64,000 nucleotides of DNA from Planktothrix sp. FACHB-1365 (GTDB lineage Bacteria; Cyanobacteriota; Cyanobacteriia; Cyanobacteriales; Microcoleaceae): positions 93,075 to 157,074 of the forward strand of contig NZ_JACJSC010000008.1 in assembly GCF_014697575.1 (NCBI RefSeq), written 5' to 3'. Both the position numbers and the translations under genes were made by a program. The notes under the pieces were generated by a model, which saw only the letters and a program-made list of their open reading frames with translations, was not told the origin of the DNA and searched no databases. Position 1 is the stretch's first letter; every line of letters starts with the position of its first letter. Of the stretch, positions 13,677 to 38,100 are shown in pieces.

Positions 13677-13796
13677 TTAGAAGCCAGAAGATAGGGGCGA
13701 GAACACTCGCCCTTAATGATTAATGATAACATTTTCTGTGAAAATTCTGAGAAAATTGAAGATGAAATCCTTAAAGGGGCGCTACAGATAAAATTT

Positions 13797-15579: not shown

Positions 15580-15583
15580 ATTA

Positions 15584-16339: not shown

Positions 16340-16354
16340 AACACCCTAAATCAT

Positions 16355-17122: not shown

Positions 17123-17160
17123 ATTGATATTATATCATTATTGTTTCATCCCATAAACCC

Positions 17161-18480: not shown

Positions 18481-18678
18481 GCCCTTATTTACAATTCAAT
18501 TAAAAATCAACTTTAATTTACAATTAGAGAAATTCTACCAAGGATCAGGCAAAATTGACATTTTTAATAAAAATTGCAGATTCAGATAAATTATGCTAGA
18601 AAAATGAATAAGGGAAGAAAAAGCTGACCCGTGCTTTCTCTGTAACTCAAAACCTCGATTTGTGCCAGGAAATGTCCT

Positions 18679-19533: not shown

Positions 19534-19623
19534 TCTGTTTAATCGTTGAAGGACAAGATTTTAATGTTCCATCAGGTCATCTATCCCAAAATAGGGTAAA
19601 CTACTTTATATTTTAAATTTTTC

Positions 19624-20766
19624 ATGAGTTCCATGACGAATTCTGTTTTTTCGCCTTTACAAAGTCGTTTACTCACGGGGTTACTGATTTTAGTCGTGAG
19701 TTGGTTAAGCTTTCAATTTTTAGGTTATGTTGGCGAATTAATCAGTATATTAGTTACCTCTGGATTAATTGCCTTTCTTCTGAACTACGCCGTAGCAAAA
19801 TTAGAACGCTTTATTCCGCGAGGAATTGCCGCCGCTTTAGTGTATTTAATTGCCATTGTAACCTTTGTAATTATTGCCTTAACTCTTGTCCCCCCTGTCT
19901 TTAATCAAGGACGACAATTAATTACCCGATTACCGGAATTAATCGAATCAGGACGGCAACAGTTAGCCGAATTTCAAGTCTGGAGTGTTGAGCGTAATTT
20001 ACCCTTTGATGTGGGAATTTTACAACAGCAACTGTTGTCTCGAATTCAATCAACCATTGAACCCATCCTGACCGGAAGTTTAGGCTTAGTTCTGGGAACC
20101 TTTAATTGGTTTTTTGACTTAATTTTTATTTTGGTCATTGCCTTTTATATGTTATTAGATGGGGAACGGTTATGGAACCTCCTAATCACTATTTTATCTC
20201 CCCAAATTCGAGAGGTTTTAACCTTTTCACTAGAACGAAATTTGAAAAAATTTGTTTTAGGACAAACCTTGCAGGGAATTTTTATGGCAATCACCTTAAC
20301 CTTTGCCTTTTTAATGTTAAAAGTTCCCTATTTCCTATTATTTGCCGTTGTGATTGGATTATTGGAAATTATTCCATTTGTGGGAGCCACATTAGGAATT
20401 GGAACTGTCACTATTATCGTCGCTTTTATTGATTGGTGGCTGGCTTTACAAGTGTTAGCGGTTGCCATTGCAATTCAACAAGTGAAGGATAATATTGTTG
20501 CCCCTCGAATTATGGGAGATTTAACCGGATTAAGCCCTGTGATTATTTTTAGTGCTTTATTATTAGGAGGAAAAATAGCCGGATTATTAGGATTTATTCT
20601 GGCGATTCCGATGGCTGGGGTGGTTAAAAGTATTATTGAAGTGGTTGTTGATCCCACTTTACCTCCTCAAACCGGTTCCTTCTTTTATAATCCTTTAGAT
20701 TCAAAAGTTAACTTAACGCCAACGGAAACTTTATCTCTAGCCGAACAAGAACGCTTGAAGGTGTAA
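19624..20766 (+). CDS. AI-2E family transporter (PerM/YdiK-like permease)
   Basis: 380 aa with ~8 TM helices. The topology and C-terminal GxxG-rich helices (ALLLGGKIAGLLGFILAIPMAGVV) are typical of the family. Confidence 0.7.
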   Translation: MSSMTNSVFSPLQSRLLTGLLILVVSWLSFQFLGYVGELISILVTSGLIAFLLNYAVAKLERFIPRGIAAALVYLIAIVTFVIIALTLVPPVFNQGRQLITRLPELIESGRQQLAEFQVWSVERNLPFDVGILQQQLLSRIQSTIEPILTGSLGLVLGTFNWFFDLIFILVIAFYMLLDGERLWNLLITILSPQIREVLTFSLERNLKKFVLGQTLQGIFMAITLTFAFLMLKVPYFLLFAVVIGLLEIIPFVGATLGIGTVTIIVAFIDWWLALQVLAVAIAIQQVKDNIVAPRIMGDLTGLSPVIIFSALLLGGKIAGLLGFILAIPMAGVVKSIIEVVVDPTLPPQTGSFFYNPLDSKVNLTPTETLSLAEQERLKV

Positions 20767-20782
20767 AATAAAAAAATAGAGA

Positions 20783-20806
20783 CACAACTCTACACGTTTT
20801 TCAACA
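20783..20806 (+). terminator. Hairpin TAGAG-ACACAA-CTCTA followed by GTTTTTC after the AI-2E transporter gene
   Basis: A stem-loop with a downstream T-run, 17 nt past the stop. Confidence 0.3.
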
Positions 20807-20831
20807 ATTCTTTGAGTGAAAAATCTGAACT

Positions 20832-21899
20832 ATGAAATGGTGGCAACGACTTAAAACTAATCCTTTAGCTCAATTTGGAGCCGGAATTTTATTGTTATTT
20901 TATGTGATCGTCATTGCAGCAGATTTTGTTGCGCCTTATAGTCCTTATGAATCGCAACTGAACGCTTCATTATTGCCACCGACTCAAATTTATTGGTATA
21001 ACCAACAAGGGGAATGGATTGGCCCCCATGTTTACCCCACAACTCAAGGCCCGGTGGATATTGAAACGGGAATTCGTCAACTTAATGTTGATAAAAGTCA
21101 GCCGAGTCCTGTCCGATTTTTTGTCCAGGGAGAACCCTATAAAATATTAGGAATTATCCCGTTTAATCGACATTTATTTGGCACAATTGGAGCCGGACAA
21201 ATTAACCTAGTGGGAACCGATGAACAAGCCAGAGATCAATTTAGTCGGATTATTTTTGGAGGTCGAATTAGTCTCACTATTGGATTAGTAGGAATTCTAA
21301 TTTCGTTCCCGTTAGGAATGATTTTTGGAGGAATTTCTGGTTATTTTGGCGGATGGTTAGATACTTTTATTATGCGAAGTGTTGAAGTATTAATGATAAT
21401 TCCTGGGTTATATTTGTTGGTGGCATTAGTAGGGGTATTACCCCCGCAAATAACCAGTACCCAGCGTTTTTTATTGATTGTGGTGATTATTTCCTTTATT
21501 AGTTGGGCTGGGTTAGCACGAGTAATTCGAGGACAAGTTTTATCGATTAAAGAACAACAATTTGTTCAAGCTTCACGGGCTATAGGAGCTAATTCTTTCT
21601 ATATTATTACTCGTCATATTTTACCCCAAACCGCAACCTATCTCATTATTTCGGCTACATTATCAATTCCCAGTTTCATCATTGCAGAATCAGTTTTAAG
21701 CTTTTTAGGTTTAGGAATTCAACAACCCGATCCCTCTTGGGGAAACTTACTTTCTTCGGCAACAAATGCCTCAATTTTAGTGTTACAACCTTGGTTAATT
21801 TGGCCTCCTGCTATTTTAATTATTTTAACGGTATTAGCTTTTAATTTATTAGGAGATGGGTTAAGAGATGCCCTTGATCCTCGGAGTCTGCAACGATAA
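20832..21899 (+). CDS. ABC transporter permease (oligopeptide/dipeptide OppC/DppC-type)
   Basis: N-terminal TM anchor plus periplasmic loop, then the EAA-like motif region SRAIGANSFYIITRHILP. It ends ...LGDGLRDALDPRS, the characteristic OppC/DppC C-terminus. Confidence 0.85.
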   Translation: MKWWQRLKTNPLAQFGAGILLLFYVIVIAADFVAPYSPYESQLNASLLPPTQIYWYNQQGEWIGPHVYPTTQGPVDIETGIRQLNVDKSQPSPVRFFVQGEPYKILGIIPFNRHLFGTIGAGQINLVGTDEQARDQFSRIIFGGRISLTIGLVGILISFPLGMIFGGISGYFGGWLDTFIMRSVEVLMIIPGLYLLVALVGVLPPQITSTQRFLLIVVIISFISWAGLARVIRGQVLSIKEQQFVQASRAIGANSFYIITRHILPQTATYLIISATLSIPSFIIAESVLSFLGLGIQQPDPSWGNLLSSATNASILVLQPWLIWPPAILIILTVLAFNLLGDGLRDALDPRSLQR

Positions 21900-21921
21900 A
21901 CACAATTGAATTCAAGTTCTA

Positions 21922-23379
21922 GTGATGTTAACTGATAAATCTGGATGTCGAAATGTTGTGATTGTTGGAGGCGGCCCATCGGGACTAGCGATCGCTTTAA
22001 TGTTAGCAAAACGGGGCTGGACAGAAATTACTGTTTTAGAAAAACGAAAAACGGCTGACTATTACGAACCGGATAAAGCGTTTAACTATCAAATTGATGG
22101 TCGAGGTCAAAAATTATTAGATTGGCTAGGATTAACCCCAAACCTAGCAGAAATGAGTGTTTCTAGTCAAGAATTTTACTTAACGATAATTCAACTTAAT
22201 GGAAAGCGAAAAACGATAAAATTACCCTTTATTAATCCTAATCGAAAAACAGCTTATTGGTTGCCTCGAAGAACCTTTGTTTCTTTACTTTATGAAGAAA
22301 TTGAACGCAATTGGCAACAGCAAATCACTGTTTTATTTGAAACAAAATGTATTGAATTAAATCAGAAACAGGAACAATTGCAGGTCATTGTTGAATTAAA
22401 AAATAGCGAATTAAAGCGTTTTACACCTGGTTTTGTAGTCGGTTGTGATGGTTTAAATTCTATTGTTCGTCAAACCCTAAACGACTGGGAAAAACCTGAT
22501 AATCATCGCTTTGAAATGCAATATTTTCCCTCGCCTAGTTCAGGACTGCGCTATCAAGTTTTAACCTTACCGCCTCAATTTCCGCTTTCAAACCAGCTAG
22601 ATGATCAATCTGTCTGTACAATGGCTTATGCAATTCGGGGTAAAGCCGTAGAAGGTCAGAAGAAAATTTCTTTGGGTTTATTACCGATGAAAAATCCCGA
22701 TGAACCTCGAACTGCTAATATTATTACTTATCCTCATCATAAAATTTGGACTCTAAAAACAAATCAAGAATTATATCGTTTTTTAGAACAATCTTTCCCT
22801 CAATTATCCATTCGTGATATTATTTCTGAGTCTGAAATTACACGATTTGTCAACAGTCAAGGTGGTGTTTTTCCCGTTCCTCAATTTTGTTCAGGATTAC
22901 ACTTTTTATTAAAATCTGATCAAACTTTCTCTGCCATCCTCTTATTAGGAGATGCAGTCCATTGTTTTCCCCCGGATATTGGTCAAGGGGTCAACTCAGC
23001 GTTAGAAGATGTCTATATTTTACAACAGATTCTCGAAGAAACTCAAGATGATTTATTGTTAGCTTTACCGCTATATGAAGCTCGACGTTCTGGAGATATT
23101 GAAGCGTTAATTCGTTTAGCTCAAACGACTTTTCCTTGGCAATATAACCAAAATGGGTTCCGTCGAAAGTTATGGGATATAAACTTTTTAATTAGACTGC
23201 TTCTGAATCGATTTTTGCCTTTCTTTTTCAGTCCTCCTGCATTTTTAATGATTCAAGATTATCAACTCAGTTATCAAGAAATTTGGCATCAAAACCAACG
23301 CACAAATCAACGTTTTCTCATCCTCGGTGTAACGCTGTTAGGCCTATTATTTCTTCTGGGATTCAGTTTTAACGTCTAA
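21922..23379 (+). CDS. FAD-dependent monooxygenase (kynurenine-3-monooxygenase-like fold) with C-terminal membrane anchor
   Basis: VVIVGGGPSGLAIALMLAKRGWTEITVLEKR is a GxGxxG Rossmann motif. GCDGLNSIVR and LLGDAVHCFPPDIGQGVNSALEDV are the DG and GD FAD-binding motifs of class A flavin monooxygenases. Confidence 0.7.
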   Translation: MMLTDKSGCRNVVIVGGGPSGLAIALMLAKRGWTEITVLEKRKTADYYEPDKAFNYQIDGRGQKLLDWLGLTPNLAEMSVSSQEFYLTIIQLNGKRKTIKLPFINPNRKTAYWLPRRTFVSLLYEEIERNWQQQITVLFETKCIELNQKQEQLQVIVELKNSELKRFTPGFVVGCDGLNSIVRQTLNDWEKPDNHRFEMQYFPSPSSGLRYQVLTLPPQFPLSNQLDDQSVCTMAYAIRGKAVEGQKKISLGLLPMKNPDEPRTANIITYPHHKIWTLKTNQELYRFLEQSFPQLSIRDIISESEITRFVNSQGGVFPVPQFCSGLHFLLKSDQTFSAILLLGDAVHCFPPDIGQGVNSALEDVYILQQILEETQDDLLLALPLYEARRSGDIEALIRLAQTTFPWQYNQNGFRRKLWDINFLIRLLLNRFLPFFFSPPAFLMIQDYQLSYQEIWHQNQRTNQRFLILGVTLLGLLFLLGFSFNV

Positions 23380-23410
23380 CTCAGATTGGCTTAAGAAGCT
23401 AACTTCTACC

Positions 23411-23725
23411 CTATTCACCGAGATAGGACGTTAAAGTTTGATAATCTGAAAAATCTGAACAGTTAATAGCTTGTTCTGTTAACGCAATTTTGGGATTAAT
23501 GGTACATTTTAATTGATAATTTCCGGTAAAAAATTTACAGGTTGAACAAGGAATTTTATGTAATTCTTTAACGCTGGTTATTCCTTGTGTCAGTGTTCTA
23601 TAGGTACTCCAGATTAACGAAAAAACAAATAACCAAGCAACACTAAAGCAAACAATCTGCAATAGGATCGGTGAAATAAGATTAAAAAAATATAGAATTT
23701 GAGACATGGCAGTTAGGAATAACAA
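23411..23725 (-). CDS. Small hypothetical membrane protein with Cys-rich C-terminus
   Basis: 104 aa with two N-terminal TM helices, then CSTCKFF...C...C. No known family recognised. Confidence 0.3.
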   Translation of the reverse strand: MLFLTAMSQILYFFNLISPILLQIVCFSVAWLFVFSLIWSTYRTLTQGITSVKELHKIPCSTCKFFTGNYQLKCTINPKIALTEQAINCSDFSDYQTLTSYLGE

Positions 23726-24280
23726 AGAGGTAAGCTAAAGCTAATACTCATCTATTCTGAAGGGATGACTGTTTCCCCTCATCTAACTTCAGCATGATCT
23801 GTTTGTGAATTCGGTTTGTAAATTAAGCGATAAAACTCATCCATTGAAGAAGTCTCATCATTGATTACAACCGAAATTAACAAAATCTCTACCTTAAGTT
23901 AGAAAATGAATTGATCAGAAATCGGTAAAGTATTGATTACTTCTCTATGAAGTTAAGCTTGGGAATTGAAATTTTCTGGATTCATATTGCTAAATATCCC
24001 TTAACTCCTTTTTGGATTATTTAATGGGATTTTTAAGTAAAAAATGTCCTCTTTTGAGGGTTGAGATTGCCATCTTTATCGATAAAGTTGGTGATGAATT
24101 GTAGCGTTTCGTTTCAACGCTGAAACACAATTTCTCCAAAGTTGGGTGTTGCTAGTGCAGTCGGGTTTGATTTTTTTTCTATCCCTTTCTCTGATTCATG
24201 AATGGTTTTTTTAATATTAACCCGGATGCACTGGCTCATCTTTAGCAACTTGGATTCGCTCTGATGGAGTCAGTAAATAC

Positions 24281-26512
24281 ATGGCAGCGAAATTCCCAAA
24301 ATTTGATCAAGGTCTTGCTCAAGACCCAACCACTCGCCGAATTTGGTACGGGATTGCCACGGCCCATGATTTTGAAAGCCATGATGGCATGAACGAGGAA
24401 AATCTCTATCAAAAGATTTTTGCCTCTCATTTTGGTCATTTGGCGATTATTTTTTTATGGACATCCGGCAACCTGTTCCATGTCGCTTGGCAAGGAAATT
24501 TTGAACAGTGGATTCGAGATCCCCTGCACATTCGTCCCATTGCCCATGCCATCTGGGACCCCCAATTTGGCAAACCGGCAGTGGAAGCCTTCTCCCAAGC
24601 CGGAGCTATAAACCCCGTTAATATTGCCTATTCGGGCGTTTATCATTGGTGGTATACCATTGGGATGAGAACCAACGCCGAGCTTTATCAAGGCGCTGTT
24701 TTCCTCCTGCTTTTGGCGGCATTGTTTCTATTTGCGGGCTGGTTACACCTTCAACCCAAATATCGTCCGAGTTTGTCTTGGTTCAAAAATGCGGAGTCCC
24801 GCCTTAACCACCACTTAGCGGGTTTATTTGGGGTCAGTTGTCTAGCCTGGACAGGCCATTTAGTTCATGTTGCCATTCCTGAATCCCGTGGCCAGCACGT
24901 CGGATGGGATAACTTCTTGACCACGTTACCCCATCCGGCCGGACTCAAACCCTTCTTTACTGCAAATTGGGGGGTTTATGCCCAAAATCCTGATACGGCG
25001 CAGCACGTTTTTGGCTCATCGGACGGGGCAGGAACGGCGATTTTAACGTTTTTGGGTGGGTTTCATCCCCAAACTGAATCGTTATGGCTGACGGATATTG
25101 CTCATCACCATTTAGCGATCGCGGTGATCTTTATTATTGCGGGTCATATGTACCGAACCAACTTCGGCATTGGCCACAGTATTAAAGAGATGTTGAACTC
25201 GAAAGATCCGTTGTTTGGGGTTCCCACTGAAGGACAGTTCAACTTACCCCACCAAGGTTTGTATGATACCTATAACAACTCCCTGCATTTTCAGTTAGGA
25301 ATTCACCTGGCTGCGTTGGGGGTGGTGACATCGCTGGTGGCGCAGCATATGTATTCCATGCCACCCTATGCGTTTATCGCCAGGGATTATACAACCCAAT
25401 CGGCACTGTATACCCATCATCAATATATTGCTGGGTTCCTCATGGTCGGAGCCTTTGCCCATGCGGCTATCTTCTGGGTTCGAGACTATGACCCCGACCA
25501 AAACAAAGGCAACGTTTTAGATCGGGTTTTGAATCACAAAGAAGCGATTATTTCCCATTTAAGTTGGGTGTCTCTATTTTTGGGATTCCATACCCTGGGT
25601 ATATACGTTCACAATGATGTCGTCGTTGCCTTTGGGACACCGGAAAAGCAAATTTTGATTGAACCTGTATTTGCTCAGTTCATTCAAGCGGCTCATGGTA
25701 AAGCCCTTTATGCAATGGATGTGTTACTGGCGAACCCAGACAGTATTGCCCATACTGCTTGGCCAAATCATGGGAATGTTTGGCTACCCGGTTGGTTAGA
25801 TGCGATTAATTCCGGTAAGAATTCATTGTTTTTAACCATTGGCCCTGGGGACTTCTTAGTTCACCATGCGATCGCTTTGGGTCTACACACCACCACCTTA
25901 ATTTGTGTCAAAGGTGCGTTAGATGCCCGTGGCACTAAACTGATGCCTGATAAAAAAGACTTCGGTTTTACCTTCCCTTGTGATGGCCCTGGACGGGGGG
26001 GCACTTGTCAAACGTCGGCTTGGGAGCAATCGTTCTTCCTAGCAACTTTCTGGATGTTGAATACCCTCGGTTGGATCACGTTCTATTTCCACTGGAAACA
26101 TTTAGGGGTGTGGCAAGGAAACGTTGCTCAATTTAATGAAAGCTCAACCTATATTATGGGTTGGTTTCGGGATTACCTCTGGCTGTATTCGGCTCAGGTG
26201 ATCAATGGTTACAACCCCTACGGAACCAGTAACCTCTCGGTTTGGGCCTGGATGTTTCTGTTCGGACATTTGGTTTGGGCCACTGGGTTTATGTTCTTGA
26301 TCTCTTGGCGAGGCTATTGGCAAGAACTGATTGAAACGTTAGTTTGGGCCCATGAACGCACCCCTCTGGCGAACCTTGTGATCTGGAAAGACAAACCGGT
26401 TTCGCTGTCAATTGTTCAAGGATGGTTAACGGGTTTAGTTCACTTTACGGTGGGCTATATCCTCACCTATGCCGCGTTCCTACTGGCTTCAACGGCTGGA
26501 AAATTTGGCTGA
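24281..26512 (+). CDS. psaB: Photosystem I P700 chlorophyll a apoprotein A2 (PsaB), stand-alone and somewhat divergent copy
   Basis: The N-terminus [36 protein letters not shown] matches PsaB ([36 protein letters not shown]). The FX loop [19 protein letters not shown] is present. It is 743 aa and ends ...GKFG. Confidence 0.93.
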
Positions 26513-26540
26513 TCATCCCTGAAAGGGTGAATGATTAACT

Positions 26541-26573
26541 ATAGGGGTGACGACAGTTGCCCCTATGTTTTTG
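26541..26573 (+). terminator. Intrinsic terminator of psaB: ATAGGGG-(12 nt)-CCCCTAT then GTTTTTG
   Basis: 7-bp GC-rich stem plus T-tract about 30 nt after the psaB stop, read directly. Confidence 0.55.
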
Positions 26574-26633
26574 TGCTTCAGTATTAGAAATCAGGTTAGC
26601 TATTATAGGGATGAACCTTGTTGCAACACCACA

Positions 26634-26888
26634 ATGAGCATCAATCTCACCTCTGACCAAGAACAATTTATTCAAACTCAACTAGAATCTGGAAAATATC
26701 AAACCCCTGAACAAGTCATCTCAACTGCGTTGCGCCTACTGGATGAATGGCAAAGGGCTGAGGCAGAATGGGCTAAAGATGTGGCAGCTAAAATCGATGC
26801 GGCTGTATCCACCTCTGAAGAAAATCCTCCCCTTGATGGTGAAACTTTTATCAATGAGATTTTAGAACGGTTTAAGCCAACCCATTAG
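26634..26888 (+). CDS. ParD/CopG-like ribbon-helix-helix antitoxin (type II TA antitoxin), orphan
   Basis: MSINLTSDQEQFIQTQLESGKYQTPEQVISTALRLLDEW matches the ParD-family N-terminus pattern (..L.pe.e.Fi..qv.sGrY.sasEVvReaLRLLee). The start was moved downstream of the psaB terminator. No toxin ORF follows. Confidence 0.55.
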   Translation: MSINLTSDQEQFIQTQLESGKYQTPEQVISTALRLLDEWQRAEAEWAKDVAAKIDAAVSTSEENPPLDGETFINEILERFKPTH

Positions 26889-27109
26889 GATACAACGATG
26901 CTGCTTGCTAGTTACCAGGAGCGTCGCACAAGTCGCTCACTGGATCAAACTGCATTGTTGGATAGTGTATATTTATAATCTATAGAAGGATTTTAATGGC
27001 AACAGCGCAATGGACTATTCCCGACTGGTAAAACTCAGCCAAGAACTGTTAACCAGAACTGCCCTTCTGAGCTTAAGCTATTCGGCTCTAGTAAGGAGAA
27101 GTAATATCA

Positions 27110-30100
27110 ATGACCGTTTTTTATGTTTGTCTCACAGAGCAGTGTAGAATTGATGCTACTAAGTATGGTGTCATTCAAGATATTGAAAAGTTTGCTGAAA
27201 AGCTAAAAAAAGACCAAAGTACGAGAGGACTTGATCGATTTCCAAAACCCTATTGGAAGAAATCAATGGCAAGAGGTCGTATTGTTATTGAAGAGTATCC
27301 TCTGAGTGAAGACAAGATCATCCTCGGCCTGTCCCGATTTTTCATGCGAGGGTCTGATGATCGAGAATATGAGCCTTCTTATAAAGACACAGAATCTTTT
27401 TGGAATAAAAACAAGGTTTCTGGTTCTGAAATAGAAGCATTTCTTGACACCATAAAAAAAACACCAATTCCTCCCAAAAAACAGTTATCAGAAATTGAGA
27501 GTCAGTATCTTCAATCGATATCAAGTTCTTACTTGACTGATGAACCTGTATTCTTAGAAAGTTATGACTGGGTTGATCGTATATCTCAGGATTATATCAA
27601 ACATCATATTTCACGCTATTCCGATTTAAGCAAGAATATTGCATTTGAAGAATTTGCGCCTAATCAAGATTTGATCAAGCACGCAACAAATCCTAACATT
27701 CAAATTCTATATCGGTATTTTCCAGAACATAAGAGAATATTATTAATATCTCCCCTAAACAAAAATAAACAAGACGATGAAAAAGAGTTACGAGAGAAGT
27801 ATAAAGATATTTTAGTTAATTCACAAGTCGAACTTGACACAATTATCCGTTGGAGTCGGCGTGCCTACCCTTCGATCATTGTCTGTGATGAGGAAGTGTG
27901 GATACAGGTTCAGAACACTGCTGAGGCTAATTTAGCATTATCGCCTGAAGAAGAGAAAATTCTTGAAAAAATATCAAATCCTGCTCATGGAGAACCAAGA
28001 TATCCATTATTTATCAATGGACGACCAGGTAGTGCTAAATCAACTATCCTTCAGTATTTATTTAGTGAGCATTTAACTCACTATAAAGACGAGGCTGGCT
28101 CATTAGTCAATCCACCATTGTACTTGACTTACAGCACTCCACTTTTGGAGAAAGCTCGTTCATCTGTAAAAGATATTTTACTCTGTGGTGCAAAACATCT
28201 TGAGCATGGATCTAATTCCAAAGAGAATCCAAAATTGAAGCAGATATTAGATCAGAGTTTTCGCACTTTTCGTGACTTTTTGCGTGAGAAACTTCCTCAT
28301 GAAGTGAAGGCTGATTTTGTGGATGCTAAGTATATAAACTTTGAGCAGTTCCGCAAGGAGTGGGATAAGGCACGAGAAAAACTACCTAAATCTGAAGAGC
28401 AACGTAATATTAGTTCAGGGCTTGCATGGCACGCCATAAGAACCTTTATTAAGGGTATGCAAAACGAATTGGGTGCTGAAATCGATCCTGAATTTTACGA
28501 ATGTGAATTACCTCGCAATTTAAAATCCATCTCAGATAACACCTTTCAATTAATTTACGAGAAAATTTGGCAACGTTGGTATAAACCACTTTGCGGAAAA
28601 GAAGGCTTTTGGGATGACCAAGACTTAGCTCATGCAGTTTTAGAGTATTCAGCCAACGAATTATCACAATACCCGGCAGTGTTCTGTGATGAAGCTCAAG
28701 ATTTCACCAGCGTTGAACTTGAGTTGATTCAACGTTTATCTCTTTACTCTGATCGCCAAATACCTAGCCATCTTGCTAAGGATGTTCCGTTTGCCTTTGC
28801 AGGCGATCCTTTTCAAACTTTAAACCCCACAGGGTTCAACTGGACTGCAACACAGGCGAGTTTTCATAAAAACATTGTTCAGAAGTTCGACGATAGCAGT
28901 GGTTCTGCCAAATTAGAGTTTAATTATCAAGAACTATCCTTCAACTACCGTTCATCAGAACAAATTGTCAAGTTAGCTAATTTAATTCAACTTCTACGAG
29001 GGAAACTGCTAGATATTAAAGGCTTGCGTCCACAGCAAAGTTGGACAAGACAAGAAACAAGTAGTCCTGTATGGTTCCGAGCAGAAGATGCAGCTTGTAA
29101 AGACAAAATTCGAGAACAAAAGGAACTGATTATCATTATTCCTTGTGAAGAGAACGGTGAAGTGGAGTATATTAAAGGTGATCCTTTTCTGTCTAGCTTT
29201 GCGTTAGGGAATGATGAGAAGGTTTCAAGAAACATTTTAAGCCCAGCAAGAGCTAAAGGATTGGAGTATAAGCGTGTATTGCTATACAAGTTTGGTGAAG
29301 AAGCAAGAAAAAAAGTGCCAGAATTTCTGAAATATCTTAAAAATATTAATGATCCAAAACTTGAGCCTCCTGAGATTGAAGAGTGTTTGGCATGGGAGTA
29401 TTTTCTTAACCAGTTTTATGTTGCAGTAAGTCGCGCTCGCAAACGTTTGTTTATCGTAGATTCTGATCAGGCACTAGAAGAGTTCTGGAAATTATTTACA
29501 GATATCCAAAAACAACGTGAACTACTTGACTTATATCAAAGTATCAATAGTAATGAACAGTGGAGCCTTGAAAACATAGGTGGCATGATACAAGGTGACG
29601 AAGACAGCTGGTCAGCTGATCGTGATGATCCGTATAAGTTAGCTCAGAATTATGAGGCTCAAGGTCGTAGCTCAAGAGATCCCGATCTGCTAGATCTTGC
29701 TAGCTGGAACTATCATCTTGCTAACTGTCCTGACAAAGCCAAGCTTTGTCAAGCAGCCGCCTACGAATTTAGGGAACATTTTGCAAATGCAGGTAATTTA
29801 TTCAAAGAGTTAAAGCAAGCCAATGATGCTTGTCGGTGCTATTGGGCTGGAAAAGATGTAGATGCAATTATCGATTTAGTTAAGCAACTTCCTGAAATTG
29901 ATACAAACCCGCGCGTTACAGCAGCAAGAGTCATCAAACGAGATCAAAATACTAGGCAAGACATTGACAATCTGCTGACTGCTTTACAAAAGGTTGAACC
30001 TATAAGATCAGATGATTCCACTAAAATCGAAAGTAGCGCATGGCAGTGGTTTTTTAAGGAACTGATTATTAAAGTCGATCAGGCAATTACATCGAGTGGC

Positions 30101-31573
30101 GAAGCTCATCTTTTAGGCTGGAAACCGTTAATTGAAGGTATAGTCAAAACTTTAAGTCACCTCAATTTTTCCTCCAAAGATTATCCAGATATCGGCAAGT
30201 TGTACTTCTTGGTTGGAGAATTTCAAGAAGCTGTCACACATTGGGATAAATGTTCTGCCATTCAGAAACAGTCTCAGAAGTCACCAACGTGGCTTCTTCG
30301 ATCACGGGCTAAAATAGAAGGTTATCCAGACAATCTCCAATATTATCATCAACTGAAAGATGACAATGCTGTAATAGAGGCTTGGCGAAGTGCTGGGAGT
30401 CCTATTCCTAGAGAAACACCCGTCGTCAACAGAATTCTCGAATCTGCTGTAAAAATTGGTAATGTTGAGGCTATCCGATCCCTACTTCCTGTCTGCAATG
30501 ACATTGCAAAAGTAAGGGACTTGGTTAGGGATAGCAAGAATGAGGTACTCCGTGAACTGCGTGGTAGTATTTCTGTTGCTATTAACCAATGCTTGGAAGC
30601 CGATAGCGAATGGGAAGAAATTGTCAACTTTACCCAGACTTACGAGATTAGTCATTTGCTGATTGGAAAATCACGAAATATTCCATATAGTTCGCTCAAT
30701 GAGGAGTTGAAAAAAGCGAAAATTGAGTGGGATCAATCAATTGCTATTGCCGCTGCTGTGCGCGTGCTTGCCAGATCCGAGCGACTTGTTAAGGAGAATT
30801 TTAAGTCTCAACAAATCATTTCAGAATTCCTGAAGCAACATCTCATCATTGACAATAATAGTAGCCCAGAACAACACAAAATCATGCGGGAAGTTCATCA
30901 AATATTGAGTGTAGATGAGGTTGGGTCTGCTTTTGAAAGGGCATTCAAACTCACTTTTGCCTTTGAATATTACGAACAATGGTACAAGAGCAATAGTCCA
31001 GCCCAAGAACTTCACCTGATTTCTCCATCATCTAAGGATATCAATCTTGCCAAGCGACGCTGGATGAAATGCAAATATATCCTCGCTGAGACAGAACAAA
31101 ACGCACGAAGCCCTCAACTGAAAGAGGAAGCTCAAAAGATGGCTGATCAATTAAACGTGTCTATTGATGATGAGCCAAAATACTTAGAACTTCCTGACAT
31201 CACTGAGTTGAATATTCCAAGTTCTTCAGAAGCAATAACACCAAAAGCTTTGATTCTAACAAAAGATATGAACGAAGAACTAACCATTAAAGGCTTAAAT
31301 TTCATCGTGAAGACAGACCATATCCAGAAGCAGCGTATTTCTCTTAAACGAGTCGATAATGGGGATAATGTTTTGTTCAGTCTAAACAAGGTAAGCAGTG
31401 ATGATGTATCAGTCAAAGAGTTGGCAGAAACTCCTACACTAAAAGTTTGGGTAATTGAGGAATGGGATATTAACATTGAAAGTCAAACTAATACAGGTGA
31501 TTCTATCATTTCGTTAAAAACGAGTGAAGGCAACCCGATTATTCGTATTGAATTACCGAAAATATCAAACTGA
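27110..31573 (+). CDS. 1487-aa multidomain protein: ~270-aa N-terminal domain of unknown function, SF1 (UvrD/PcrA-like) helicase core, ~680-aa helical (TPR-like) C-terminal region
   Basis: Q-motif-like LALSPEEEKIL. Walker A LFINGRPGSAKSTIL. Motif II VFCDEAQDFTSVE. Motif VI-like YVAVSRARKRLFIVD. The codon usage (AGA/AGG, AAG, CTT/CTA, GGA) differs from neighbouring native genes (TTA, AAA, CGT/CGA, GGG/GGT). Confidence 0.8.
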   Translation: MTVFYVCLTEQCRIDATKYGVIQDIEKFAEKLKKDQSTRGLDRFPKPYWKKSMARGRIVIEEYPLSEDKIILGLSRFFMRGSDDREYEPSYKDTESFWNKNKVSGSEIEAFLDTIKKTPIPPKKQLSEIESQYLQSISSSYLTDEPVFLESYDWVDRISQDYIKHHISRYSDLSKNIAFEEFAPNQDLIKHATNPNIQILYRYFPEHKRILLISPLNKNKQDDEKELREKYKDILVNSQVELDTIIRWSRRAYPSIIVCDEEVWIQVQNTAEANLALSPEEEKILEKISNPAHGEPRYPLFINGRPGSAKSTILQYLFSEHLTHYKDEAGSLVNPPLYLTYSTPLLEKARSSVKDILLCGAKHLEHGSNSKENPKLKQILDQSFRTFRDFLREKLPHEVKADFVDAKYINFEQFRKEWDKAREKLPKSEEQRNISSGLAWHAIRTFIKGMQNELGAEIDPEFYECELPRNLKSISDNTFQLIYEKIWQRWYKPLCGKEGFWDDQDLAHAVLEYSANELSQYPAVFCDEAQDFTSVELELIQRLSLYSDRQIPSHLAKDVPFAFAGDPFQTLNPTGFNWTATQASFHKNIVQKFDDSSGSAKLEFNYQELSFNYRSSEQIVKLANLIQLLRGKLLDIKGLRPQQSWTRQETSSPVWFRAEDAACKDKIREQKELIIIIPCEENGEVEYIKGDPFLSSFALGNDEKVSRNILSPARAKGLEYKRVLLYKFGEEARKKVPEFLKYLKNINDPKLEPPEIEECLAWEYFLNQFYVAVSRARKRLFIVDSDQALEEFWKLFTDIQKQRELLDLYQSINSNEQWSLENIGGMIQGDEDSWSADRDDPYKLAQNYEAQGRSSRDPDLLDLASWNYHLANCPDKAKLCQAAAYEFREHFANAGNLFKELKQANDACRCYWAGKDVDAIIDLVKQLPEIDTNPRVTAARVIKRDQNTRQDIDNLLTALQKVEPIRSDDSTKIESSAWQWFFKELIIKVDQAITSSGEAHLLGWKPLIEGIVKTLSHLNFSSKDYPDIGKLYFLVGEFQEAVTHWDKCSAIQKQSQKSPTWLLRSRAKIEGYPDNLQYYHQLKDDNAVIEAWRSAGSPIPRETPVVNRILESAVKIGNVEAIRSLLPVCNDIAKVRDLVRDSKNEVLRELRGSISVAINQCLEADSEWEEIVNFTQTYEISHLLIGKSRNIPYSSLNEELKKAKIEWDQSIAIAAAVRVLARSERLVKENFKSQQIISEFLKQHLIIDNNSSPEQHKIMREVHQILSVDEVGSAFERAFKLTFAFEYYEQWYKSNSPAQELHLISPSSKDINLAKRRWMKCKYILAETEQNARSPQLKEEAQKMADQLNVSIDDEPKYLELPDITELNIPSSSEAITPKALILTKDMNEELTIKGLNFIVKTDHIQKQRISLKRVDNGDNVLFSLNKVSSDDVSVKELAETPTLKVWVIEEWDINIESQTNTGDSIISLKTSEGNPIIRIELPKISN

Positions 31574-31861
31574 TCTCAAATTAAAGAATGTGAAGCCTTC
31601 TATAAAAAGCTGCACCATTGCCTGCGATGAGCATACAGTGGTGGCAGCTAACTGATTGGGATCGGTCTATTTTCTGTGTTTGCAGGCTGTGTTATAGCAC
31701 TACGGAAAAAAGTAAACCAGTATTCTTCTCAAACCGATTGACCCAAACCTCAACACAACCGTGATCCCTATCACACAACTCTAATTCGTATCAGAAGATA
31801 GTGGATTTACAGTATTTAGGCCACAACCATGTTGACTGGAGAACGCAAGGCGGACAACCGG

Positions 31862-32173
31862 ATGGATAGTCCTGAAACCGCCAGTGGAGTTATTCGCCTC
31901 AAACCCCAACAATACATCCATATTCTCGATACCAATACCGGGGTCACTCGCTTAGAAGTTGGCCCCCAAACCATTACGCTTCGGGATCATGATCGCCTTG
32001 CCTTACGTCCAGAGTCCATGATCGTTGTCCCCCCTCGCTATTATTGCATCATTACTAATCCGGTTTTGCGAGATGAAGACGGTCAACCCTTGGCGGATCA
32101 ACATGGTCAAATTCGGCTCCGCTATCAAGCTAATTCCATGACGACATCAATTGTATGTCCTAACACTTCATAA
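31862..32173 (+). pseudogene. Truncated major-vault-protein (MVP)-like gene: only the N-terminal ~100 codons (first vault repeat) remain
   Basis: MDSPETASGVIRLKPQQYIHILDTNTGVTRLEVGPQTITLRDHDRLALRPESMIVVPPRYYCIITNPVLRDEDGQPLADQHGQIRLRYQ aligns with vertebrate MVP [86 protein letters not shown] (~45% identity, no gaps). Homology stops at codon ~100 (nt ~32128), exactly at the stop codon of the convergent HD-GYP gene. Confidence 0.6.
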
Positions 32174-33768
32174 ACTTTTCGTTGTTTAAAGAGTTCTAAA
32201 CAATCAGCATTAATTTTATTGTTGGCGGCTTCTTGTTGTAAGATTTTTAAAGCTGTTACAGTAGGTAATCCGCTTTTATAAGGGCGATCGCCGGCTGTTA
32301 GGGCATCATAAATATCTGCAATAGTAATAATTTGAGCTTGGATGGGAATTTCGGGGAATTTTAATCCCAAAGGATATCCGGTTCCATCCAGTTTTTCATG
32401 ATGTCGATAAGCAATTGTGGGAATATTTTTTAAGTCATTTGTCCAGGGAATTTGCTTTAAGAATTCATAAGTATAACTAACATGGGATTCAATCTTTTCT
32501 CGTTCTTCTGGGGTTAAATTTCCTCGTTCTACTAACAGTTGATTAATTTCTTCTGAAGTTAATAAAGGTTTTATTTGTCCATCTAAATCTCGATAGGTCA
32601 TTTGAGCCAGTTCCCGCAGATGGTTTAAGGGATCTTCTGCTAAAACTCTGGGTTCATTTGCTTCTAACAAAACGGCCCAATATTGGCTTAATTTAGCAAT
32701 TGATTCTGATAATTTTGTATCTAATTCTGGGATAGATTTACAAAATTGACATTCCGTTTCTGGGGATAATTTATGGGCGGAATGCTGCAACAAATGTTCG
32801 TATTTAGTTTGGGTACATTCTAATTCTAAGGTGCGTTGTGCTAAGGCAAATCGATGACGGATAACCTCTAATTGCAGCGAATAAAGTTTTTTCGGTTTGG
32901 TTAAAATTGCTTCAGGAACACCCACTTTCCCAAAATCATGTAATAATGCAGCATAGCGAAGTTCTTGAAGTTGACGTTCACTAAAACAAAAAGGTGCTAA
33001 GGAACCTGAATTAACCGTATTAACTTCTTGACTTAAACGAACTGCTAATTCTGCCACTCGTTCTGAGTGACCAAAGGTACAAGGATCACGAGCTTCAATC
33101 ACTTGTACAGATGTGCGAACAAACCCCTCAAATAGATGTTCAATACTTTCTTGTAAGTGATTTCGTTCAATGGAAATAGCGGCTTGGGAGGCGAGCGATC
33201 GCAAAATTCGCTCTTCCCAAATCGAATAAGGTTGGGTCATTTCTACTGCATTTTCAGCCGTAATTGCTACATCCGGGTTGATTTTGCGGTTAATGAGTTG
33301 TAGAACCCCAATCACTTCTCCTTTGCGATTTTGCATCGGAACCACTAATACCGAACGAGTCCGATAACTAATATTTTCATCAAAACTACGATCCAGTTGA
33401 TAGGGTTCATGTTCTGGTAAATTATAGGCATCGGGAATATTTAATGAAACGGATTTTAACGCCACATATCCAGCTAAACTTCGAGGAGTTAAAGGAATGG
33501 CAAATTCTTTAAAGGATAAATTGGGTAAAGACGCATTTTGGGCAACTTTAAACAGCAATTTGGGGTTGTTATCACTGTTATCGATGAGATAGACACTTCC
33601 CGCATCACTCCAAGTAATTTCCCGACTTTTTGTTAATATTAAATTCAGCAGGGTACTTAACTCTTGAGTTCCAGATAGAGCCGTACCAATATCAAGCAGT
33701 TTCTCAATGAGTTCGGCTTGCTCATCGAAGTTATGGAACAATTCGGGTTTCTCAAAAATTATTTTCAT
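32125..33768 (-). CDS. GAF-domain / HD-GYP-domain protein (probable cyclic-di-GMP phosphodiesterase)
   Basis: HD-GYP signature LLHDFGKVGVPEAIL ... HHEKLDGTGYPLGL. The N-terminal ~200 aa are GAF-like (LSGTQELSTLLNLIL...AGSVYLID...VPMQNRKGEVIGVLQLINR). Confidence 0.8.
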   Translation of the reverse strand: MKIIFEKPELFHNFDEQAELIEKLLDIGTALSGTQELSTLLNLILTKSREITWSDAGSVYLIDNSDNNPKLLFKVAQNASLPNLSFKEFAIPLTPRSLAGYVALKSVSLNIPDAYNLPEHEPYQLDRSFDENISYRTRSVLVVPMQNRKGEVIGVLQLINRKINPDVAITAENAVEMTQPYSIWEERILRSLASQAAISIERNHLQESIEHLFEGFVRTSVQVIEARDPCTFGHSERVAELAVRLSQEVNTVNSGSLAPFCFSERQLQELRYAALLHDFGKVGVPEAILTKPKKLYSLQLEVIRHRFALAQRTLELECTQTKYEHLLQHSAHKLSPETECQFCKSIPELDTKLSESIAKLSQYWAVLLEANEPRVLAEDPLNHLRELAQMTYRDLDGQIKPLLTSEEINQLLVERGNLTPEEREKIESHVSYTYEFLKQIPWTNDLKNIPTIAYRHHEKLDGTGYPLGLKFPEIPIQAQIITIADIYDALTAGDRPYKSGLPTVTALKILQQEAANNKINADCLELFKQRKVYEVLGHTIDVVMELA

Positions 33769-33868
33769 TCGACACTTTCACTCCACTTCCCTCGAACTAT
33801 TAATACGGTGAAATTTAGTTACTCTATCCTAAAGTTATTCAGAAAAAAAATCAGCACTGATGTTATGA

Positions 33869-34150
33869 TTAACCCAGTGCTGAAATTTGTTGAGCTAAAG
33901 CAAAATCTTTCTCGGTTAACCCCCCAGCGTCATGAGTTGTTAGACTAATGGTGACTTTATTATAAGAAATCTCTAAATCGGGGTGATGTCCAGCAACTTC
34001 TGAAGGTTCGACTAACTTGTTTACAAATTCAATCGCTTCAATAAAATTTTTAAATCGTTTGACTAATTTTAAATAGTTTCCCTCCACTGTCCAAGCTGGA
34101 ACTTGCTGGGAAAGGCGTTGAATTTCGCTATTACTGAGTCGTCCTACCAT
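33869..34150 (-). CDS. Pterin-4a-carbinolamine dehydratase (PCD/DCoH)
   Basis: 93 aa with W..E...L...F.F..F..A..F.N.V...AE...HHPD (EVAGHHPDLEISYNKVTISLTTHDAGGLT), the canonical PCD motif. Confidence 0.88.
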   Translation of the reverse strand: MVGRLSNSEIQRLSQQVPAWTVEGNYLKLVKRFKNFIEAIEFVNKLVEPSEVAGHHPDLEISYNKVTISLTTHDAGGLTEKDFALAQQISALG

Positions 34151-34644
34151 GGGCTACTTTAAAATGATAATAAATGTAGGATTAAAATAACTATCCGCTC
34201 TCACCCAGAGTTTGTGTTAGCAGTTGCCTTCACAATAGGGTAAGAGCGGTCTAGCGGGTCTCCTGGATTAGAACCTGACTGCCGGAAGATCATTTAGTAT
34301 GAGTCCGGTTATCTAGGTCAGCGAGTGTCCTGAATGAACACAAACTTTAGACTAGATGACAGCCCCGGCGCACAGTCGGCATTTTCCAATCCGGTGACCC
34401 ATGGGTTTACTACTTTCAATCATGGGCATCACCTCCTTGGCTCCCTAAACGGTTTAATGCGTTCAGTGTTTACGCTTTTTAAGATAACACAGGATTTTAA
34501 AATTGTGTGTTCCCCAGATGTTAAGAAAATCAAATATTTTACATCGATAAAATTAAGATTTTGCAATCTATCTACAGGAAGAGGGAACAGAAGGGAAAAG
34601 AAAATAGGGAATAGGGGGTGAGAAACAGTGATGAGTTATCTTGC

Positions 34645-35198: not shown

Positions 35199-38100
35199 TT
35201 AGGACATTTTAGATAAACAGCGTTCTAAATAAATTTGAGCCACTTTATCCATCGGAAGATAATGTAGACATTCTTGGAATAATCTAGCAGCCTCGGAGTA
35301 ACGTTCTAAATAATATTGCATTAATCCATATTCAAAGGTGGTTTTTGTCCGAAGTTTTCCGGCTTTTATTTCCGGCAAATCTGAATCAAATACTTCATAT
35401 ACCGTTACCGCATCGGATTTTCCTTTGACTTTGACTCGATCAATAATCCGAATTGCATACTCGTTGGCATTTCCTAAAGCCATAAAAGTAGGATGGGTAA
35501 TTAATAAAGACACCCCATAATTTTTTGTTAAATTTTCAATGCGAGAAGCTACATTAACAGAATCACTAATCACTGTACTATCCAGTCGATTTTTACCCCC
35601 CACAATTCCTAACATTAATCCTCCGGTATTAATACCAATTCCAATTTTAATCGGGGGACGTTCGGGGCGTTGTCGGGTTTCATTATACTCATTCAGTCGG
35701 CTAATCATTGAAATCCCAGCCCGAACTGCATCATCAGCAGACCCGCCAAATAATGCCATAATTTCATCCCCAATATATTTATCAATAAAACCATAATTTT
35801 CGACGATGGCAGGTTCCATGCGACTTAAAAACGCATTAATAAATTTAAAATTATCTTCAGGAGTCATCCCTTCAGAAAGGCTGGTAAAGTCCCGAATATC
35901 AGCAAATAAAATCGACATTTCCTTTTGAACTGCCGCCCCTAACTGAACTTCTACAATACTTTCATAACCTAAAAAAGATAAAAATTCATGGGGAACGAAT
36001 CGCGCCGCCGCATCCGTTAGTTCAAATTCCGAATCTAACGCTTCATCTAAATGATGATTCAATTCTGAAAGTTTTGCCATAAATTGTAAGCGTTCTTCTT
36101 CGGCAGTTTTTCGTTCCGTAATATCAACGACAAACCCTTCATAATACAGTAATTCATTCTGATCATTAAAGACAGCCCGTGCATTTTCTGAAATCCAAAT
36201 AATGCTACCATCTTTGCGGTAGGCTTTAAATTCAAATCCTGAAACTTCCCCTTGTTGATCAATTAATTGTATAAAATCTAATCGGCGTTGAGAATCTACA
36301 TAAATTTGTTCTTCAACATTCATCACCGTTGACATTAAATCCCAAGGAGAATCATAACCTAAAATCTTCGCTAAGGCAGGATTTGCACTGATATAATGCC
36401 CCTCCCTGGTGGTTTGAAATAAGCCTTCACTGGCATTTTCAAATATACTGCGATATTTTTCTTCGGCTTGTCTTAAAGCCAGTTCTGTTTGCTGACGTTT
36501 TGTGATATCTTGAAACGCCAGAATCGCATACATTAAATCCCCCTCTTCATCATAAGTCGGTGTTACCCAATTTTCAAGCAATATCGTTTGTTCTCCTTGA
36601 TTCACTTCTAAAAGAAACGTGGTATCGGGTGTAGGATTATATAAATCACAATAAGGTGTTAATTGATCAAATTGATGCTGTTGACACCAATTAAGATAAG
36701 CTTGATAAATATTAGATAAAGCTTCACAAAATAATCCAGGAGTGACTTTAGTTTTGAGCAATTGTTGAGCTTTTTGATTGGTAAAATAGGGTTTACCCGT
36801 AGGGTCTAAAACAGCAACGCCAACCGGAATTCCTTCTAAGAATTGCGTCATCTGTTGTTCATTATTACGAACTTGAGAATAAAGTTTAGCATTATCAATG
36901 GAAATCGCGGCTTGAGAAAACAGAATTTTGAGGACTTCTAATCGTTCTGGAGTAAACACTGCGGTTGCTAAGTTATTTTCAAGGTATAGAATTCCAATCA
37001 ATTTTCCTCGATTTTGAATGGGAGTCATGAGGATTGATTTGGATTGATGTTCTATTAAATAAGGATCATTACGATACCGAGATTCTTGACGAGCATCTGC
37101 TAAAATTAGAAACTCTTGGGTTTGAATCACGGTATTCAGAATTAACAAAGGTAAAACATTACTCTGTTCTACAGAAACAGATTTTAATAAGGATTCAATC
37201 TCAATAGACCCTCCTTTCGTCGGGTTTAAACTGGCTATTGCTTCTATCGCTAATTTTCCCGATTTAGATAAAAGAATACAACATTTTTCGGCTCCTGCGT
37301 TTTCAATTACCACTTGAATTAATCGTTTCAAAAGTTGTTCTAAATCGATTTCTTGAGATAAAGCTTGAGAAGCTTTTGTTACCGTTGCTAAATCGAGAGC
37401 AGCCGAACCTCCATGACTACTAGAAATAATGGTTTCTGTCGTATTATTACTGATTGTTGTGCCTGTTGTGGGAATAACAAGTTGTGATAAAATAGAATGT
37501 AAAAGTTGAGGATAACGAGATTCTAAATCTTTGACTTTTGCCAAAGCACCCCAATGAGCATAACTATAATAGGCATCAATTAAATAAACCCTGGCTATTT
37601 TTTCTTTCCCCCAATCTAAATAAAATTTAGCCGCTAATTCCTCTGCTAACGCTTCTTCTTGAATAAATTGATAGGTTTTAGCCAAAGTAATCGCTTGTTC
37701 ATAGGCTTCAATGGCTTTAATATAATCTCCTTGAATGTGGTTAAATTCGGCCTCCACCAAATAAAATAGATGGGAAAAGTTCATCGGAGTCCCCTGAGAA
37801 AAAGCTTTTAATTTTTCTTGATTTTGAGTTACTTTTTCTAAAATTTTAACTTGGTCTTCTGGCGATAACTCCGGGTAGATTGCTAAATTAATTAAAGATT
37901 GATAACAATAAAAAAACGGTTGTAAAACAAAATAGGTGTCTTGGTTTAAATAGTATTCAGCTTGCTGAGACCATTCCTTCGCCTGCTGTAATTGATCTAA
38001 TCTATAATTCAGAACCATGAAATTTAAACTAAGTTCAAAAGAAATTTCCTGGGTCGAATATCCAATTTCAGTCGTTCCTATTGTGCCGTTTTCAGCATGA

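Follow-up and report, generated by a model that had tools for sequence, protein, structure and literature searches.

A mosaic variable segment of Planktothrix sp. FACHB-1365 carries a strain-specific gene for a giant SF1 helicase-TPR protein with a possible role in defence

The locus described here touches on several known systems: the superfamily 1A (SF1A) helicases UvrD, Rep and PcrA, together with HelD and AddA/RecB; the Gabija system with its GajA (OLD-type) and GajB components; the Avs and STAND proteins; the group III Schlafens SLFN11 and SLFN13; and the RelE/ParE toxins of the ParDE type II toxin-antitoxin modules. Homologues of the vault protein MVP have already been described in Oscillatoriales (bioRxiv 10.1101/872010). 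The DNA analyzed, referred to as the window, is a stretch of 64,000 nucleotides from Planktothrix sp. FACHB-1365 (contig NZ_JACJSC010000008.1, positions 93,075 to 157,074 of the forward strand). Its subject is an intact gene for a protein of 1487 amino acids, called the giant below. An earlier note, made from the DNA letters, had combined a ParD-like antitoxin gene, the giant and an MVP-like fragment into one horizontally acquired, partly decayed island between a native psaB and a native HD-GYP gene. The best explanation, which we regard as likely, is instead that three pieces with separate histories lie side by side, and that the giant acts as a single-polypeptide anti-phage or conflict protein.

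The ParD-like gene, the 1487-aa open reading frame (ORF) and the Vault fragment were found where the earlier note had placed them, as was the hairpin of the psaB terminator. The relevant features of the window are the following.

20832-21899, plus strand: OppC/NikC-like ABC permease gene (NCBIfam Opp4C, E 1e-87), the conserved left flank of the variable segment
21900-32124: variable segment of 10.2 kb, from tblastn and blastn of the window against four Planktothrix loci
21922-23379, plus strand: FAD-dependent mono-oxygenase gene (Pfam FAD_binding_3)
23380-24280: AT-rich spacer of about 0.9 kb between the mono-oxygenase gene and psaB
24281-26512, plus strand: psaB with no psaA upstream (Pfam PsaA_PsaB, 1287 bits)
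26540-26567, plus strand: hairpin resembling an intrinsic terminator of psaB, followed by a T run
26634-26888, plus strand: gene for a ParD-family ribbon-helix-helix (RHH) antitoxin (Pfam PF03693)
26896-31712: strain-specific cassette of 4817 bp, from blastn against the P. tepida locus
27110-31573, plus strand: the giant gene
31713-31828 and 31829-32125, plus strand: resident MVP upstream region and MVP codons 1-99, a pseudogene remnant
31829-32173, plus strand: the MVP-like ORF with the Vault_2 fragment (E 1.3e-12)
32120-32127: junction of the MVP deletion with GCTAT microhomology, from the junction alignment and overlapping blastn segments
32125-33768, minus strand: intact GAF/HD-GYP gene (Pfam GAF and HD_5), the conserved right flank

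The complete chromosome of Planktothrix tepida PCC 9214 (LR882970.1; locus L088) served as the sister reference. The genes of this locus are arranged in the order OppC, FAD mono-oxygenase, psaB, ParD, a 412-aa gene on the opposite strand, an intact 872-aa MVP gene and the convergent HD-GYP gene. Three segments of the window were aligned to it by blastn: 12326-26895 with L088 385-14974 (94.8% nucleotide identity), 31713-32125 with L088 16392-16804 (96.6%) and 32121-34326 with L088 19247-21455 (96.1%). The 4817 bp from 26896 to 31712 show no homology to the P. tepida locus, which contains 1417 unrelated bp there instead. This cassette consists of the giant gene with 214 bp upstream and 139 bp downstream, and its left breakpoint is located 7 nt past the ParD stop codon. 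The alternative cassette of P. tepida encodes, on the minus strand (L088 14998-16236), a protein of 412 aa with a hydrophobic segment at the N-terminus, a long coiled coil and, at the C-terminus, a Gly/Ala-rich, membrane-like region, for which no Pfam or PADLOC match was found. The amino acid identity of the surrounding gene products to those of P. tepida is 99.5% for psaB, 98.4% for HD-GYP, 96.4% for ParD and 95.1% for the FAD mono-oxygenase. As judged from these alignments, only the giant and its short flanks are strain-specific, and both strains have ParD, psaB, the FAD mono-oxygenase and MVP as residents. The proposal of three co-acquired genes has to be given up, as ParD and the 5′ end of MVP are common to P. 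tepida (96-100% amino acid identity) and lie outside the 26896-31712 fragment. What stands of the acquired island is the giant, which is foreign by composition and absent from the P. tepida locus; the island as a single co-acquired block does not stand.

The MVP-like ORF has arisen by a deletion. Intact MVP genes of 872 codons with the full Vault/MVP_shoulder architecture are present in P. tepida (L088 16508-19126) and in the Oscillatoriales locus L005 described below. In the window the Vault repeat domain is present and the full architecture of repeats, shoulder and cap helix is not, with 99 of the 872 codons left. A fragment of 2442 bp of P. tepida (L088 16805-19246), reaching from MVP codon 100 to the end of the gene and including the intergenic spacer, is missing. 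The sequence GCTAT is found at both ends of the deleted fragment, and the junction is one base away from the stop codon of the HD-GYP gene, a TGA in FACHB-1365 and P. tepida alike. The remaining ORF overlaps the 3′ end of the convergent GAF/HD-GYP gene and continues antisense to it up to position 32173. Since the stump is undecayed, its 99 codons being 100% identical to P. tepida MVP at the amino acid level, the deletion must be recent. The MVP piece is thus a true remnant, as had been supposed, but the decay is a single microhomology deletion in a resident gene and not the erosion of an island.

A wider variable segment surrounds the cassette. The HD-GYP protein was used to fetch 80 loci from species-representative genomes, and these contain full-length homologues of the gene with conserved downstream synteny. 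In all four informative Planktothrix genomes (UBA8402, P. paucivesiculata PCC 9631, PCC 11201 and GU0601_MAG3; loci L007, L008, L009 and L065) the OppC-like and HD-GYP genes are directly convergent, with their stop codons 4 nt apart. The homology of these loci with the window stops at 21899/21900 and restarts at 32124-32129, and the break at the OppC-like stop codon is also seen with L005. The adjacency of the two genes in four genomes implies that the whole 21900-32124 segment, psaB included, is variable accessory DNA. The psaB gene, previously taken for a native flank, therefore lies inside the segment, and both psaB and the FAD mono-oxygenase gene are missing from the four genomes. L005, from the Oscillatoriales metagenome-assembled genome (MAG) KTt_bin-1839, belongs to the closest representative genome (HD-GYP 92% identical at the amino acid level) and contains 3.5 kb at the site: an intact 872-aa MVP gene (11722-14340), a DUF29 gene between OppC and MVP (region 14622-15104) and a relic of 48 bp (14482-14529) left from the 3′ end of the gene for the FAD mono-oxygenase. 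This relic implies that the lineage once held more of the segment and lost it, and indicates separate deletions at the same hotspot. The 21900-32124 fragment is an older accessory segment with the FAD mono-oxygenase, psaB, ParD and MVP genes, common to P. tepida. Polymorphism between close relatives with conserved flanks was found both for this segment and for the cassette at 26896-31712. The locus is an ordinary variable hotspot with a cassette swap and a deletion. A third configuration of its right boundary was observed in a Planktothrix MAG (L006 11641-21641; HD-GYP 89% identical at the amino acid level), where synteny is lost precisely at the stop codon of HD-GYP; the genes beyond it are unrelated, and no OppC gene is present within 10 kb. 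The edges are free of tRNA genes and integrases, as the earlier note had reported: no tRNA was found in the window, no integrase or transposase among the ORFs of 21.9-32.1 kb, no Rfam element at the cassette edges and no terminal direct or inverted repeats at the edges.

The psaB gene of the window encodes a full-length protein of the canonical type, with white-light PsaB proteins as the best matches in the PDB. It is 88% identical to the PsaB proteins of P. serta and PCC 11201, which share 96.9% identity, whereas identities of 90-91% are reached with PsaB of other Oscillatoriales encoded in normal psaA-psaB operons. By these identities it does not belong to the canonical PsaB group of Planktothrix and is probably an extra copy of horizontal origin. 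The FAD mono-oxygenase has a single close homologue, that of P. tepida (95%), and the next best is 65% identical.

The composition of the region was assessed with a leave-one-out codon likelihood test over the 35 ORFs of the window and with strand-symmetric tetranucleotide profiles of 3-kb windows, correlated with the rest of the sequence. Among these ORFs the giant gene is the strongest codon outlier, falling short by 0.39 bits per codon (z -17.7). The tetranucleotide correlation drops from 0.81 +/- 0.06 to 0.33 (z -7.8) over 27-31 kb only, and the giant gene is poor in CCCC/GGGG and CCGG and rich in GATC. The codon TTA makes up 0.30 of its Leu codons against approximately 0.5-0.8 in its neighbors, AAA 0.66 of the Lys codons against approximately 0.88, and AGA/AGG 0.28 of the Arg codons against approximately 0.14. 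This agrees with the earlier description of its codon usage as far as TTA, AAA and AGA/AGG are concerned; CGT and GGG show no contrast between the giant and its neighborhood, and for GGA the direction is reversed, with approximately 0.5 in the neighborhood and 0.19 in the giant. The second codon outlier is psaB (z -10.9), because of the usual bias of a highly expressed gene, whereas the FAD mono-oxygenase gene has a native-like usage (z -0.4). With fewer than 100 codons each, ParD (z -2.5) and the MVP fragment (z -2.6) are too short for the composition test, and several unrelated genes of the window are equally deviant. The intact MVP gene of P. tepida deviates moderately (z -6.9; GC content at third codon positions, GC3, 0.43). 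Its relative synonymous codon usage (RSCU) correlates with that of the giant with r of only 0.27, so that the deviation has a different direction, and the supposed foreign usage shared by three genes is not supported. The 412-aa gene of P. tepida is mildly atypical (z -3.7). The anomaly in composition is real and exceeds chance by far, but it is confined to a single gene, the giant, and foreign composition was found for no other gene of the block.

Other deviations were observed elsewhere in the window. The ORFs at 44694-45842, 47082-48104 and 48168-48707 are richer in GC3 and have codon deficits of z -3.6 to -5.3. They deviate about as much as ParD and the MVP stump, which implies that mild deviation is common in the window. 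A Gly-rich ORF of 2689 aa at 52026-60095 (335 Gly codons) is the second tetranucleotide outlier (r approximately 0.62, z approximately -3), but conforms to the host in codon usage. The 64 kb contain 22 copies of the HIP1 octamer GCGATCGC, 3 of them in 21.9-26.5 kb. As a marker of native DNA the octamer was discarded: none was found in 26.5-32.1 kb, where 1.9 would be expected, and this difference is not significant alone.

The architecture of the giant was studied with a 62-sequence family alignment and AlphaFold (AF2) models built on it. The predicted local distance difference test (pLDDT) score is 86 for aa 1-830 and 92 for aa 801-1487. Five parts can be distinguished, all on the plus strand.

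27110-27394: N-terminal domain, aa 1-95, with the order β-α-α-β-β-β-β-α (AF2 pLDDT 86)
27407-27985: conserved α/β domain, aa 100-292, with invariant E150, W154, R251, Y253, P254 and W264
27992-29599: SF1A ATPase/helicase core of the UvrD/Rep type, aa 295-830
29630-31153: TPR-like α-superhelix of approximately 510 residues, aa 841-1348 (AF2 pLDDT 92)
31244-31570: C-terminal β-sandwich, aa 1379-1487, from AF2 secondary structure, with no Pfam match

The core consists of two RecA-like domains with the UvrD/Rep fold. Motifs I, II, III, IV, V and VI of the SF1A UvrD/Rep helicases are all conserved, and GRPGSGKST, CDEAQD, GDPFQTLNPTGF, NYRS, KGLEY and VA(A/V)SRAR are invariant or nearly so in the 62 members. 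The superhelix was matched by Foldseek to Ski3, the TPR region of OGT and Ctr9, and by phmmer to consensus TPR. No relatives of the aa 100-292 domain were found in Pfam or PDB searches. The whole giant and profiles of its N-terminal and middle domains, searched against PDB, Pfam and NCBIfam, returned TPR and weak helicase matches only, with 18.5 bits for UvrD_C (threshold 25.6) and 20.6 for UvrD_C_2 (threshold 27.4); for the helicase core NCBIfam gave no match.

For the N-terminal domain, a search of 1.84 billion representatives with a profile of aa 1-100 found 485 proteins (50%-identity clusters), nearly always at the N-terminus of proteins of the same size, which implies that the domain is specific to the giant family. 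In the AF2 topology its order of strands and helices is that of the RelE/ParE toxins. An hhalign comparison with a profile of six RelE-family sequences gave a score of 26.4 (P 2.9e-4, Prob 40%, 76 collinear columns). None of 120 column- or block-shuffled controls reached this score or went beyond 17.1. The alignment pairs the invariant R57 with RelE R61 and the near-invariant R80 with R81, residues that reportedly have roles in RelE. A search of the small ORFs of the fetched loci yielded no RelE homologues for a cleaner profile.

Approximately 400 homologues of the giant, 1340-1580 aa long, were found in cyanobacteria, Gamma-, Alpha- and Deltaproteobacteria and Rhodothermia. The family is unannotated and patchily distributed, and literature searches identified no described helicase-TPR or RelE-helicase defence family. 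In a collection of 5.8 billion protein sequences, which includes P. tepida proteins, the FACHB-1365 entry is 100% identical to the giant; the closest homologue apart from it shows 65% identity, a value that is exceeded by no protein of P. tepida or any other Planktothrix. An exact-sequence look-up of the giant in assemblies gave no record. The RSCU of the giant correlates with r 0.91-0.92 with its closest homologues, from Aerosakkonema funiforme and another assembly, against 0.66 with the host. A homologue at L086 7001-11386 has a GC content of 0.39 in a locus of 0.52; members of the family look foreign in other hosts too. The nucleotide homology to the closest homologues covers the ORF plus or minus approximately 10 nt only, and their upstream DNA is unrelated to the window apart from the region of the ribosome-binding site. 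The larger cargo that, according to the earlier note, the island may have carried has thus left no sign as far as the giant is concerned. Between the two closest homologues, approximately 150 nt upstream of the gene are conserved (L002 2753-2968 and L003 2759-2899) and absent from the cassette of the window; this stretch can be read as an ORF of 46-71 aa (…VTVVVTKGIRYNLSC…) and could be a small gene or a regulatory element.

In eight of eight independent loci the giant homologue stands alone, with different neighbors each time, and in seven of them recognized conflict genes lie within 7 kb. The neighbors are a Bub ubiquitin-like operon and an HTH/M78 pair in L003; BrnT/CopG and, farther off, DruA (PADLOC E 1e-115) in L004 and L085; HsdM and HIRAN in L086; Uma2 nucleases and a caspase in L087; HindIII restriction-modification genes in L092; a type III restriction gene, an OLD/AriA-like ATPase (E 1e-58), SbcCD-like genes and an integrase fragment in L093; and AAA_35/VMAP-type genes in L001. 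This context resembles the pattern of a stand-alone defence-island gene, a qualitative statement and not an enrichment statistic.

We propose the following history and mechanism. An older accessory segment, common to P. tepida, occupies 21900-32124 between the convergent OppC-like and HD-GYP genes. Within it, the interval from the stop codon of ParD to the promoter region of MVP is a swap site, taken by the giant cassette in FACHB-1365 and by the 412-aa cassette in P. tepida. The giant would have arrived horizontally, probably from another filamentous cyanobacterium, and its cassette may have been fixed by recombination without an integrase of its own. Independently, a recent 2.4-kb microhomology deletion removed MVP codons 100-872. 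In the protein, a trigger would be bound at the C-terminal end, by the TPR superhelix and the β-sandwich. The SF1 motor of the UvrD/Rep type would act on nucleic acid and link the hydrolysis of ATP to activation, and the RelE-like domain at the N-terminus would be the effector, with mRNA cleavage as its likeliest activity. The architecture and the intact ATPase motifs are shown, but in this logic of trigger-sensing TPR, SF1 motor and RelE-like effector our confidence is rather low. For a defence or conflict role as such, the foreignness, the intact motifs, the TPR array, the basic N-terminal domain and the neighborhoods tip the balance slightly in favor.

Several observations weigh against this account and are considered together. 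The RelE-like nature of the N-terminal domain, to which we lean on the predicted topology and a weak profile match, has no sequence match in Pfam or PDB behind it, and the hhalign score depends on the settings, falling to 15.6 with -M 50. Single-sequence hhalign comparisons with RelE, YoeB, YafQ, HigB, MqsR and archaeal RelEs gave P 0.02-0.39 and could not be told apart from those with 12 unrelated controls (P 0.10-0.79). No PADLOC 2.0, Pfam or NCBIfam family covers the giant, and only partial GajB-type matches were obtained. Its neighbors in the window, psaB, ParD and MVP, are not classical defence genes. No family member was found on PLSDB plasmids or in phage records. The direction of the cassette swap is deduced from composition, as two genomes cannot polarize gain against loss.

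The alternatives differ in how much of the evidence they can accommodate. For a single acquired and decayed island of ParD, giant and MVP fragment between native psaB and HD-GYP speak the contiguity of the three ORFs on one strand, their codon likelihoods, all below expectation under host usage, and the lack of homology to the four Planktothrix genomes across the block. The breakpoints of homology, however, separate the giant from ParD on one side and from MVP on the other. At this site P. tepida carries ParD (96% amino acid identity) and MVP (100% over codons 1-99) without the giant, the four genomes also lack psaB and the FAD mono-oxygenase, and the codon usage of MVP is unlike that of the giant (r 0.27). 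This model is highly improbable. It is unlikely, though far less so, that the giant is ancestral to both strains and was later replaced in P. tepida by the 412-aa gene. That gene is itself mildly atypical, the event is not polarized by the two genomes, and L005, which has lost the whole interval, is uninformative. But the signature of the giant is unameliorated and matches homologues of other genera (r 0.92) far better than the host, and the protein database holds no other Planktothrix homologue above 65% identity. Whether gained here or lost in P. tepida, the giant is foreign by composition and accessory.

A different pairing is suggested by the position of ParD, which lies on the same strand as the giant gene, 221 bp away, and could be the antitoxin of its RelE/ParE-like N-terminal domain in an unusual toxin-antitoxin or defence module, as ParD normally pairs with toxins of the RelE/ParE fold and the giant shows that topology. 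The ParD protein itself scores 27.1 bits against PF03693 (cut-off 21) and 39.7 bits against TIGR02606, under the cut-off of 46.2. Six-frame translation of 26860-27125 revealed no ParE toxin ORF or remnant after it, and in P. tepida the convergent 412-aa gene follows instead of a ParE gene; the antitoxin without a toxin behind it is thus real in both strains. P. tepida has ParD without the giant, and the cassette begins only after the ParD gene has ended. None of the eight homologue loci has ParD upstream, and the DNA that precedes the closest homologues is unrelated. With a ParD gene older than the cassette and homologues that are without a partner of this kind, the pairing is very unlikely, and ParD was rejected as a conserved partner of the giant. 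The main rival on function is a non-immune role, with the giant as an accessory helicase of DNA repair, recombination, RNA surveillance or RNA polymerase recycling (HelD- or Ski-like), or as a selfish gene. We consider this rather improbable, given the patchy occurrence across phyla, the lack of conserved partners, the AT-richness of homologues relative to their hosts, their repeated proximity to restriction-modification, OLD, Druantia, Bub and toxin-antitoxin genes, and the basic and aromatic residues that the family-specific N-terminal domain keeps in a RelE-like arrangement.

Next to the HD-GYP gene, a multidomain signalling protein of 2122 aa is encoded at 35199-41567 on the minus strand. 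It contains Ser/Thr kinase, AAA_16/STAND-like ATPase, TPR, GAF, PAS and adenylate/guanylate cyclase domains and is conserved in all Planktothrix loci examined.

The preferred explanation, three pieces with separate histories and a giant with a putative conflict function, implies that a compositional block can be a mosaic, here of a recent one-gene swap next to an older accessory segment and a fresh deletion, and that even a seemingly native psaB can be accessory. Further study is best directed at the giant family and the strain pair. FACHB-1365 and P. tepida form a natural, near-identical pair without and with MVP, which could help to test the role of MVP in cyanobacteria. The giant is a concrete candidate for an undescribed helicase-based defence family with a clear domain plan, in which the Walker A residue K310 and the residues R57, R80 and Y87 can be tested.

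Compared with the described systems, the MVP-like fragment corresponds to the 5′ end of the Oscillatoriales MVP homologues, of which only codons 1-99 survive, and the gene is dead. A ParD-family RHH antitoxin is present as in ParDE type II modules, but the cognate ParE gene is absent downstream. The N-terminal domain of the giant shares the predicted topology of RelE/ParE toxins, but it is fused to a protein of 1400 residues and not paired with an antitoxin. The giant differs from UvrD/Rep/PcrA, HelD and AddA/RecB in Pfam UvrD scores below the cut-offs (18-21 bits), in approximately 290 N-terminal and 650 C-terminal residues that the SF1A enzymes lack, and in being an accessory gene of patchy distribution and not a core repair gene. 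In contrast to Gabija, no GajA (OLD-type) partner is encoded in the window or in most homologue loci; an OLD/AriA-like gene lies 5 kb from the homologue in L093 only and is not conserved. The giant is also three times larger than GajB and has other accessory domains, and the matches between them span stretches of only about 100 residues. With the Avs and STAND proteins it shares the plan of an N-terminal putative effector, a central P-loop NTPase and a C-terminal TPR superhelix encoded by a single gene. Its NTPase, however, is an SF1 helicase and not a STAND domain of the NACHT/NB-ARC type, and no Avs or STAND model matches it. The fold of its N-terminal domain differs from that of the group III Schlafens SLFN11/13, to which it scores below the cut-off, and Schlafens are without a TPR tail; the giant resembles them by analogy and is not a member of the group. 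The giant may best be viewed as an unannotated variant of the helicase-based or NTPase-TPR defence architectures. Its family comprises at least 485 sequence clusters at 50% identity in several phyla. That the giant is the founding member of a new class of single-protein immune sensors, in which a UvrD/Rep-type SF1 helicase takes the place of the STAND NTPase, with a TPR sensor array on one side and a RelE-like ribonuclease effector on the other, is possible though doubtful; if true, it would be a convergent bacterial counterpart of the Schlafen-type nuclease-helicase antiviral proteins.

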